A DNA stretch of 64,000 bases, from assembly GCA_951406725.2 (NCBI GenBank), contig OX597830.1, forward strand, positions 46,438,001-46,502,000, given 5' to 3'. A program made the translations under genes and the position numbers. The notes below the pieces were generated by a model. The model had not been told where the DNA came from and searched no databases. It was given only the letters and a program-made list of their open reading frames with translations. The stretch is from Octopus vulgaris (Eukaryota). Of this stretch, positions 4,201 to 7,200 are shown piece after piece. Every line of letters begins with the position of its first letter. Positions within the stretch are counted from its first letter, which is position 1.

Positions 4201-7200
4201 ACATTCCACCCAAGACCAACCTGTCATTTTTTGCTTTTCATCCATAGCACATTCCACACTGAAATATCCAATGTGTCCCTCTTAACCCTTCAGCATTCAG
4301 ATTATTCTGTTGAATGTAATCCATATTTAGTCACATTGATTTAATTACGCATGCATTATCTTTTTGTGCTGAGATTTTGATGATGTAATCATTTATATTC
4401 TCAGCATGGCAACAGAAGGTGTGAGAAGCTGCATGTAGCCAGTCGGTACATAAAACAGGTAAAATATTTGGGTTGGATATGATTGGTTGAAATACAAAAG
4501 GGTTAAGACAATAGGAGATTTGGCTGCTATTTCCAGCAGGTCAAATGATTACGAATCCTGAACTACATAGTCATTCAAATGATTTAACCATTTATTTCAT
4601 AAAAAAAACTAGCATTGCTTACTTGTTGGAATGGCGTTCAATGTGGCGTTTATAACCATTATCAGAGAGAACTATTTCTGGGTCAATCTGCATGTTAGCC
4701 TTCTCCATTTCAATTGCTGCTGAGAAGTTCTTTGCTTCCCTCTTGGCTTTCTTGCCCTTCCGTCCACGTGGAACTGGAGCTGAAAGTCCTGAATATATGA
4801 AAAACAGTACAGCATTACATGTTTGCCAAATTTGAAAGAATGTTAATAAAAATATCAAAGAGAAAAAAAAAGCACCTGGAGAGAGATCAAGAATTCTACA
4901 AACCAATATTTTCCATGTACAATTTATTCGTCTTTAACTCTCCCTCCCCATCACCACACAAATTTATGACATAGCACCCTATATTAGCTATGATCTGTGA
5001 GAAGATTAACCCATTGGCATCAGGATTTAAATTTGGATTAGTTATATTATACTGGATAATGCGCAGTTTGTTGCTGCTGTTTAGCCCCGAGTCAGGCCTG
5101 ATCAAGCAGATTTATGCTCTTAAAATTCCAACCACGGTCAGCCTGTCTTTTATTCAAACAGTCTAACATCTAAGTCTAAATGCATTTCCTTTTTAAAGGC
5201 AATGGGATGATCTGGTGGCAATTTGGTTGTTATTTCTAGTGGGTCCAGCAACCAAGTAGAGATTTCCCCAGCATTTTCCATATTAAGTTGCCAATATGTG
5301 TGCATAGTAAAAGAATTAATCCAAAAATCTTCAGATTTTTTTAGCTCTACAAAGCATCCCCACTCGTCCATGATCCACATAATTACTCTACAGTCAATCA
5401 TACAACATCATTACAAATTGTATAACAAACAATATCCAAAAGGCAACAACAAACCCAATACTGCCTTCAGGAATGACTTCAGTCATAAATCTAGGATATG
5501 GTAAAGCAAAGGACCCACTTCGTTAACCCACTGAAAATGGGATACACAAAAGCATATTCCCTTTTATTACAATAGTTATTACAGGAATGCAAGCAGCTGT
5601 AGAATATGAAAAAGCTAACCTATCTGACAGAGAGGATTTTAGCAAGAGAATGGCTATTCCATACAATAGTAACACACACATATTTTTGTAGAAAATTACA
5701 ATTTATAAATCTCACGAGAGATATTCAGCAACAGTGCTCTGGAGTAAAGATTGTTTGCCAACATAACATGGCAGTCCTGGTTTAGGACAAATGTTGCTGT
5801 AATTTAAGCCCCAGGAGACATTGTCTCCAGCTGGCTATACGACACGATCTGTGTCCTTATATTTTCGAACAAGGGAAACTAGCACCCCCCACTCAGCTCA
5901 AAACAATATCTGTGTATTGCTATTTCCGGGTTATTTCCCTTCATCAGCACAGAATAATTGTTCAGCTGGAGACAATGCCTCCTGGGGGCTTAAATTACAG
6001 CAACATTCATCCTAAACCAGGACTGCCATGTTATGCTGGCAAATTATCTTTACTCCACATATTTTTGTGCTAATATATTTGATAAAGTAAATCAAGAAAT
6101 AACAATTAATTAGCATTGGCTTTGTGTTTAATCAACCACTACTGCTAATTGAACAGAGCAACGAAAGGAAGGAGAAGGTACCAAATTCCTGGTTTGCAAT
6201 ATTATATAGAGCAGGTGTATGACTTGTGTTGTAATCTTAAGCAAGACACTTTACCTGCTGAATTATTACAGGTTTGTTATAAACACCAACATTGCTTTTG
6301 ACATTAAATATAACTGATAAGCCAAAAAGCAAATCTCTCCAAGTCCCTCAAACTGCTTGAAACAGCAACCAAATCTTCCTCGATTTTCACCTTACCTTCT
6401 TTTTATAAAGTACTGAAGCATACCTAACCGTGGTACCTTACTTACAGCCAGGTAGACTGAAACAAGGAGAGCTAATTATTTTAGTAATAAATATAATACA
6501 GCATCAGTGATAAGACAAGGCAGCGAGCTGGCAGAAATGTTAGCACACCGGGCGAAATGCGTAGCCATATTTCGTCTGTCGTTACGTTCTGAGTTCAAAT
6601 TCCGCCGAGGTCAACTTTGCCTTTCATCCTTTCGGGGTCGATAAATTAAGTACCAGTTATGCACTGATCGATATAATCGACTTAATCCATTCGTCTGTTC
6701 TTGTTTGTCACATCTGTGTTTAGCCCCTTGTGGGTAGTAAAGAAATATATCAGTGATAAGACAAGAATAATTAATCCATCAGATCAGTGTTTCTCAACCC
6801 TTTTCTACCCAGGGACCCCTTTGGTTTCTATTTTGCTTGAGTGGACCCTCACAGCCATTCCATGTTTTAAAAAAAATCATATATTTTTATGATTAAATAT
6901 TATCAGGAATTACATTAAAAAAATGTTAAATTATTTTGTGTAAAATTATAACCATTTTATTGCACAGAGACTTTAACGACAAAATCTTCCAGCGACCACC
7001 AAGGGACAAATGGTTGACCCTGGTTGAGAACCACTGCCTTAAATGCTTATTAAACAGCAATTTGCTTGATTTTTTTACATCTCCCTGATCCCTCTCTCAT
7101 ACACACACATTAAAATTGTGCAATTGAGAGAAAAATTTCTGAGTTGCTGCCCAATTTTGAACACTGTGTTTTAAACCTGGTTTTGTCCCCATTAAAGCGG

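Follow-up and report, generated by a model that had tools for sequence, protein, structure and literature searches.

A 3,008-bp intron of a chromodomain and SNF2 helicase (CHD) gene carries a long inverted repeat whose loop, on the transcribed strand, reads as a hammerhead ribozyme. The locus raises the question of what kind of sequence this is, and of whether it could cut the CHD transcript in which it is embedded. An earlier note, made from the letters alone, had proposed a non-coding, ribozyme-carrying foldback retroelement that could cleave the nascent pre-mRNA. The follow-up covered the 64-kb window (the whole stretch of DNA analysed, to which unprefixed coordinates refer) and the genome around it. 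We consider it very probable that the locus arose by head-to-head insertion of a non-coding hammerhead repeat of 350 bp, is old and 5'-truncated, was likely moved in trans by the RT and GIY-YIG activities of a Penelope-like element (PLE), and has a ribozyme that is predicted to be inactive.

The intronic insertion and its hammerhead motif

The host intron occupies 4789..7796 on the minus strand. As read from the sequence, the exons on either side of intron 7796-4789 are joined in frame across GT..AG, and the exons upstream of it encode the Chromo and SNF2 domains. RNA reads were present on both bordering exons, with zero depth in the unique intron bins. The placement of the motif in pre-mRNA sense within a CHD intron is therefore upheld. 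Donor and acceptor are 1.9 kb and 1.1 kb away, respectively, from the predicted hammerhead cut site (minus strand). Splicing of the intron carrying the insertion would be normal, and a ∼95-bp dsRNA hairpin in the pre-mRNA would be the only likely effect on the host. Contigs from organisms or strains B and D bridge the junctions of the insertion (both junctions in X15, one in X16); since the insertion is common to these two other organisms or strains, it is older than their split from the present genome.

The same intron also holds a ∼250-bp repeat of very high copy number, lying between 17-bp direct repeats (6503-6765), and a short inverted pair (6785-6799 / 7022-7036). Elsewhere in the window, a single open frame of 838 codons at 54764-57280 (minus strand), rich in Q, S and T and containing several polyglutamine tracts, probably corresponds to the CHD gene's large first coding exon. 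Degraded LINE-like fragments with RT were found in CHD gene introns at ∼8400-9450 and ∼58400-60800.

The insertion is composed of two copies of one repeat. The main copy (5690..5972, minus strand) is 5'-truncated, covers monomer positions (m) ∼70-350, bears the hammerhead and differs from the family majority by 11 substitutions. Its last ∼51 nt (5690..5739, minus), running from an internal 3' terminus (m∼299) to the outer 3' terminus (m∼350), form a "tail" that is present at only one of the insertion's two ends. The second copy (5963..6057, plus strand) is inverted and likewise 5'-truncated; it covers m207-299, stops at the internal 3' terminus and supplies the 5' arm of the foldback, the 3' arm being the m207-299 portion of the main copy (5740..5833, minus). 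The two copies are joined via a ∼5-nt overlap at 5963-5967. The ∼94-bp inverted repeat described earlier is real: aligned over 95 columns, the arms (5963-6057 and 5740-5833; 95/94 nt) show 6 mismatches and 1 gap, and the foldback region has a fold z of -23. A 13-bp target-site duplication (TSD) lies at the tail end (5677..5689), with its identical copy at the inverted end (6056..6068) having 2 nt in common with the arm. The extent previously given, 5740..6057, was thus too short, as monomer sequence reaching 5690 and the 13-bp direct repeat on both sides place the edge of the element 50 bases past the earlier left boundary. No second copy of the repeat family was found elsewhere in the 64-kb window.

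The type-I hammerhead motif spans 5909..5953 on the minus strand, with a cut predicted from hammerhead numbering between 5915 and 5914. Reading along that strand, a 6-bp stem I (5953-5948 / 5914-5909) encloses the CUGAUGA core (5947-5941), an extra A (5940), a 3-bp stem II of GGG-AAAUAA-CCC (5939-5928), an extra G (5927), the GAAA core (5926-5923), a decayed palindromic stem III, UAGCAA (5922-5917), and U16.1-A17 of the AUA cleavage triplet (5916-5915). The minus strand therefore reads exactly as had been described, with intact CUGANGA and GAAA; the non-canonical A.G apposition in stem II is also present and is the commonest form in the repeat family. The 64-kb window gave a single match to a strict type-I descriptor, and of 300 shuffles one gave a match. 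An Rfam search of the window returned no matches at the gathering threshold and, at E<=10, seven unrelated matches with no hammerhead among them.

The 350-bp repeat family and its sister family

A search of the 2.8-Gb assembly (227 contigs) with the loop sequence gave 2,215 first-look candidates, 40 of which were scored, and other parts of the monomer gave 2,025 and 2,161; these are candidates and not copy numbers. Exact genome matches numbered 234 for a 25-nt core pattern and 41 for a 34-nt pattern, with none for reversed controls. The strict hammerhead pattern was present in 31 of 41 motif-spanning segments, drawn from 30 loci chosen for likeness to this region of the window, so the search of the genome for further copies that the earlier note had suggested recovered many with both cores. 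The unit is a 350-bp monomer, with a tandem period of 350 in L012, L005, L003 and L015, a tandem junction in 17/57 loci and a GC content of 38% (0.383). Three monomer units contained no ATG ORF of at least 40 aa. With many copies, both cores kept and no ORF, the description of a non-coding, ribozyme-carrying repeat of retrozyme-like or PLE-derived type holds. No published description of the family was found in the literature; Repbase, Dfam and the supplement of PMC7229834 lay outside this search and could list it.

The commonest stem III in the family is a perfect 8-nt palindrome, AUCGCGAU. When two family-majority motifs were folded together, the predicted minimum free energy (MFE) structure was a dimeric hammerhead with an 8-bp stem III and a duplex energy of -10.1 kcal/mol. 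The dimer-type palindrome that had been claimed is accordingly borne out for the family majority; the "near-palindromic" stem III of the window copy is better described as decayed from that perfect palindrome. The family motif agrees with the PLE type in CUGANGA-H, G10.1-C11.1, GAAA and NUH. The extra G between C11.1 and G12 is a family trait off the published PLE consensus, and one AGAAA row is included in the table of PLE hammerheads in PMC4209133.

Variants in stems II and III are mainly the product of CpG decay (19% at CpG versus 4% elsewhere) and offer no usable covariation within the family. Among copies picked irrespective of the ribozyme, the core was kept in 8/12 and the core plus palindrome in 3/12. 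Divergence in this small sample was 5/173 in the core versus 111/2423 elsewhere (P=0.44); since the core is not significantly conserved in these unbiased copies, decay after insertion looks neutral. A core divergence of 0.8% was rejected as a sign of constraint because it reflects ascertainment bias, the unbiased set having no significant constraint. The 11 changes in ∼270 nt of the window copy are typical of the family, whose mean divergence outside CpG is 4.1%, and judged by its sequence the window insertion is old and decayed like its siblings.

RNA depth over the monomer parallels the DNA truncation gradient, with very little depth across the first 70 nt. RNA ends did not accumulate at the cut site in these runs, which exon differences assign to a related organism, at least one of which (X21) is unstranded, and in which small circles may be lost. 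Embedded copies that are passively read through would give such a profile, and it does not speak against circles. Equal strand depth over the repeat was discarded as evidence, since X21 is unstranded on host exons.

A sister family was reached via a weak match beside a PLE. It has a 360-bp non-coding monomer and 2,827 first-look candidates (loci L088:1940-2490, L099-L128 and L189-L218), and is 55% identical to the 350-bp family (202/367 columns). It is younger, with 1.9% non-CpG divergence, and is inserted in TA microsatellites. Its hammerhead has a U3-A8 core, which is fixed in the family, two compensatory changes in stem I, a GGG/CCC stem II closed by A-U, a different palindrome in stem III (ACAUGU) and the cleavage triplet GUC. 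The covariation for which the earlier note had suggested looking is thus found between families, in the change from C3-G8 to U3-A8 and in the compensatory stem I pairs. The C3-G8 / U3-A8 swap is a natural covariation, and these compensatory changes support catalysis in what would be the ancestors of the two families. The sister family may be the better candidate for present activity. A U3-A8 core variant has been described for PLE hammerheads (PMC4209133).

The predicted folds of both monomers have a common layout in which a long rod bears the ribozyme at its tip (z of -8.1 and -7.6). When structure was mapped across the families outside the ribozyme tip, 15 of 31 changed pairs were kept, against a null of 8.8 (P=0.005). 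The reverse mapping (B on A) was weaker (13/28 kept, P=0.05), and both figures come from two families and a sequence-only alignment. The fold of the automatic A+B alignment was out of register near stem III, and its pair counts there were left out. The stem I extension native to the 350-bp family is a rod with internal loops, different from the foldback of the insertion, and its 5' half is absent from the window copy.

Insertion pattern, probable mobilisation and predicted fate of the ribozyme

Insertion architecture was examined in three sets of 350-bp family loci, each limited to the 30 loci with the highest scores in any one search (about 2,000 candidates): a main set of 60 loci (57 after removal of 3 duplicates, the window locus included), a 3'-part set of 26 loci after removal of 4 duplicates, in which a tail at one end is present by selection, and a middle-part set of 30 loci, 19 of them new. 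In the main set, 43/57 loci were inverted, with element 3' ends outward on both sides and inner junctions anywhere along the monomer. Arm length and junction differ at every locus. The notion of a foldback element as a fixed unit is not supported by these data, the unit being the 350-bp tandem monomer; insertions of this family usually leave a head-to-head scar, and the long hairpin is such a scar rather than a constant structure of the element.

The outer 3' ends of the 57 loci cluster at m285-308 and m342-350, about 51 nt apart, and a hairpin is predicted around the internal terminus, which falls in its ACUCC loop. The two kinds of end were combined in a near-regular manner: the 43 inverted loci comprised 34 tail+internal pairs, 2 internal+internal, no tail+tail, and 7 with another end. 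The 3'-part set was inverted in 21/26 loci (18 tail+internal, 3 tail+other, 15 with a TSD) and the middle-part set in 16/19 (10 tail+internal, 1 internal+internal, 5 with another end). Pooled over loci with both ends at preferred 3' termini, 62 pairs were tail+internal, 3 internal+internal and none tail+tail. The sister family, whose two 3' termini are 59 nt apart, was inverted in 18/29 loci, with 11 tail+internal pairs and 1 tail+tail, and 19 further loci gave 7 tail+internal pairs and 11 that were not inverted. TSDs of at least 10 bp (mostly 11-15) were found in 21/43 inverted loci of the main set, 2/14 non-inverted loci and 1/200 mismatched flank pairs; their absence from 22/43 inverted loci counts against the explanation favoured here.

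Few units begin at the ribozyme cut site (1/30 and 0/19). Two unit starts at monomer position 126 in the 3'-part set were not used as evidence. Private variants were common to the two inverted arms at 0.005 per site versus 0.0019 for random pairs in the 350-bp family, and at 0.0073 versus 0.001 in the sister family; in the 350-bp family the arms differ as much as random copies do (7.7%). These rates weakly suggest that both inverted arms came from the same template.

A genome search for GIY-YIG with PF01541 gave 6,136 candidates, with 148 matches listed. PLEs with RT and GIY-YIG domains are present in the genome, and in many of them a frame of 781 aa is open. Hammerheads with a U3-A8 core and a palindromic stem III lie in their terminal repeats, which end at two 3' termini 40 nt apart (a 40-nt tail); one of these repeats has the ACAUGU palindrome, as in the sister family. 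Comparison of the 350-bp monomer with the terminal repeats of two PLE families and 38 GIY-YIG loci among the 148 listed revealed no DNA similarity. Similarly, tblastn with three PLE proteins of the genome found nothing in 83 (57 + 26) family loci, so that the linkage to GIY-YIG/RT Penelope ORFs anticipated in the earlier note was not seen in the flanks of these 83 loci. A monomer copy upstream of the PLE in L087 was rejected as part of that PLE; it is missing from the sibling copies and is therefore a neighbour. Mobilisation by a PLE is thus inferred from insertion architecture and not from an identified helper.

The PLEs encountered in this search are of several kinds. The PLE of L051-L056 (e.g. 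L054:744-5960) is young and of high copy number; its RT + GIY-YIG frame of 781 aa is open, and it has an upstream overlapping frame of ∼480 aa without a Pfam match, ∼500-bp direct terminal repeats, a U3-A8 hammerhead, a 40-nt tail and TA repeats as target. An extra upstream ORF is unusual in PLEs; we take this element to belong to a Neptune-like clade. A second RT + GIY-YIG family (L087, L093, L095, L098) has an upstream frame too, and its hammerhead combines a U3-A8 core and an AGCGCU palindrome with a C.A apposition under a 3-bp stem II, which parallels the A.G apposition of the window's family. Two hammerheads of other families lie at L094:2921 (minus) and L094:3912 (plus), one with an ACCGGU palindrome and one of minimal PLE type. 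A different GIY-YIG-like endonuclease fragment at L090:5964-6458 is probably from another PLE clade.

The insertion might instead be the 3' terminal repeat (pLTR) of a 5'-truncated autonomous PLE rather than a non-autonomous retrozyme in its own right. The truncation gradient, inversion, tail and TSD are the same in kind as those of autonomous PLE ends (PMC8557442), and the loci are just the best-scoring 30 per search of about 2,000 candidates. However, copies that run 5' of monomer position 1 enter another monomer (17/57 loci) and not the 3' end of an ORF, the unit has no ORF, and the tblastn searches of the 57 + 26 loci were empty; an RT + GIY-YIG ORF between terminal repeats was not encountered in the loci examined. 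We regard this origin as improbable, at about the level of an outside chance.

For the preferred reading, insertion of a non-coding repeat mobilised in trans, the steps at the window locus can be proposed as follows. A PLE protein would have made a 13-nt staggered cut at the target; priming would have taken place at the tail terminus for one strand and, for the other, at the internal terminus, where the predicted hairpin has its ACUCC loop; the foldback would then have come from two incomplete cDNAs joined by microhomology. As copies read through the ribozyme site, the template would have been an uncut multimer or a re-ligated circle. The ancestral ribozyme is predicted to have acted as a dimer, via the 8-bp palindromic stem III in tandem transcripts. 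A more specific version, which we put forward tentatively as somewhat short of an even chance, is that a PLE-like protein dimer primes both strands of one cut from two coupled sites of a conserved 350-nt fold, and that internal priming copies ribozyme-made circles into tandems, tandem units from such circles being possible because priming is internal. If this is correct, the two sister families would preserve the footprints of how animal non-LTR retrozymes move, and the younger sister family and an intact RT-endonuclease element, with U3-A8 core, palindrome and TA target in common, would form a parasite-helper pair.

The window copy could also still self-cleave within the CHD transcript as it is made, in trans or with the help of a protein; the foldback would then clamp the cut ends, and CHD splicing or level would be altered as a result. 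Every core nucleotide is intact, the orientation is sense, arms lie on both sides of the cut site, the insertion is present in two other organisms or strains (X15 and X16 contigs), and with the inverted arm stems I and II have a predicted probability of 0.98-0.99, against <=0.24 without it. Residual cutting is also conceivable given that PLE hammerheads can be protein-assisted (PMC11167929). Against this, the palindrome is broken by two substitutions, which weaken the predicted duplex to -2.3 kcal/mol (versus -10.1 for the family majority); the MFE of the window-copy dimer lacks stem III, whose predicted probability in context is 0.0, and in the monomer fold C3-U4-G5 are predicted to be paired into an inactive helix. 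Furthermore, the window lacks a partner copy, divergence has gone as far in this copy as in its siblings, three quarters of all insertions have the foldback geometry by default, and even intact PLE-type motifs cut poorly in vitro (PMC4209133). The proposed cleavage of the CHD pre-mRNA is therefore unsupported; with two palindrome changes and no partner nearby it is unlikely, the ribozyme is predicted to be inactive, and we give a still-cutting window copy with consequences for CHD only a slim chance. Lastly, a foldback or MITE-like DNA element with terminal inverted repeats and a chance hammerhead-like loop can be dismissed almost entirely, for although the inverted repeat looks terminal at the window locus, the arms are monomer sequence of variable length with junctions scattered over the whole monomer, 51 more bases lie beyond one arm, TSDs vary (11-15 bp), tandem units exist, and neither the constant terminal inverted repeats nor the short TSD of set length that characterise foldback and MITE transposons were found.

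The single intronic copy of the window is ordinary, and its value lies in its family. The link between retrozymes and PLEs has so far come from common ribozyme motifs, co-occurrence and sequence likeness, to which the 350-bp family adds the full PLE insertion signature. The inverted and tail structures of PLEs are as yet unexplained, and the near-strict pairing of two priming sites leads to a testable prediction on PLE target-primed reverse transcription. Hairpin-enclosed intronic hammerheads in such genomes are expected by-products and should not be taken as signs of regulation.

Comparison with known retrozymes and Penelope-like elements

Among known systems, a close one is that of the non-LTR retrozymes of animals, for example the repeats of mussel (∼350-390 bp) and axolotl (330/350 bp) (Cervera & de la Pena 2020, PMC7229834). 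As in those described there, the 350-bp monomer is non-coding, AT-rich and tandem, has one type-I hammerhead with a weak, dimer-needing stem III, and occurs in thousands of copies with TSDs >4 bp. Unlike them, the family occurs mostly as dispersed, 5'-truncated, inverted insertions and not in long arrays, is old and CpG-decayed, and flanks its 3-bp stem II with one extra base on either side. Of the features that define a non-LTR retrozyme it possesses a hammerhead, tandems of 150-450 bp, GC <50%, no coding capacity or linked RT, and a TSD >4 bp. On the features tested, the family is a non-LTR retrozyme and likely a non-autonomous PLE.

A preprint (bioRxiv 10.64898/2026.07.22.740005) proposed non-LTR retrozymes as non-autonomous PLE derivatives and reported that intronic copies are common (42-44% in Xenopus) and that 8/9 tested retrozyme dimers did not cleave. 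It reaches the same conclusion on origin from vertebrate co-occurrence and sequence likeness, whereas the evidence from the 350-bp family is insertion architecture, no sequence match to an autonomous element having been found in the loci examined.

The ribozyme itself resembles the hammerheads of PLE terminal repeats, whose consensus has CUGANGAH, G..C, GAAA and a palindromic stem III, and whose activity is low and depends on a dimer (Cervera & de la Pena 2014, PMC4209133); the dimer model has been reviewed (PMC6765202). It matches these in CUGANGA-H, G10.1-C11.1 and the palindromic 15.2-16.2/loop 3, and its A after A9 is their usual extra base. Motifs on opposite strands, 100-700 bp apart, are also described in that work. 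The family differs from the PLE hammerheads presented there in a stem II of 3 bp (theirs 4-8), an extra G before GAAA, a stem I that runs into a long rod, and the lack of an attached ORF.

In insertions of endonuclease-bearing PLEs, partial tandems occur together with a copy that is inverted and 5'-truncated, and one end only bears a tail (PMC8557442, PMC3846280); the 350-bp family shows 5' truncation together with each of these. The Anolis Poseidon protein cuts and extends both target strands, reverse transcription starts from two internal sites that delimit the tail, one of them in an AC-rich stem-loop, the main template is uncut RNA, and the ribozyme requires the protein (PMC11167929). Like PLE insertions (PMC8557442, PMC3846280, PMC11167929), those of the 350-bp family have a TSD of about 10 bp, two apparent start sites, the internal one in a predicted AC-rich stem-loop, and probably an uncut template. 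Unlike the PLE insertions of these reports, they belong to a non-coding retrozyme and have a tail of 51 nt, or 59 nt for the sister family, against 30-40 nt, and the near-strict pairing of one tail with one internal terminus is counted here, in the 350-bp family.
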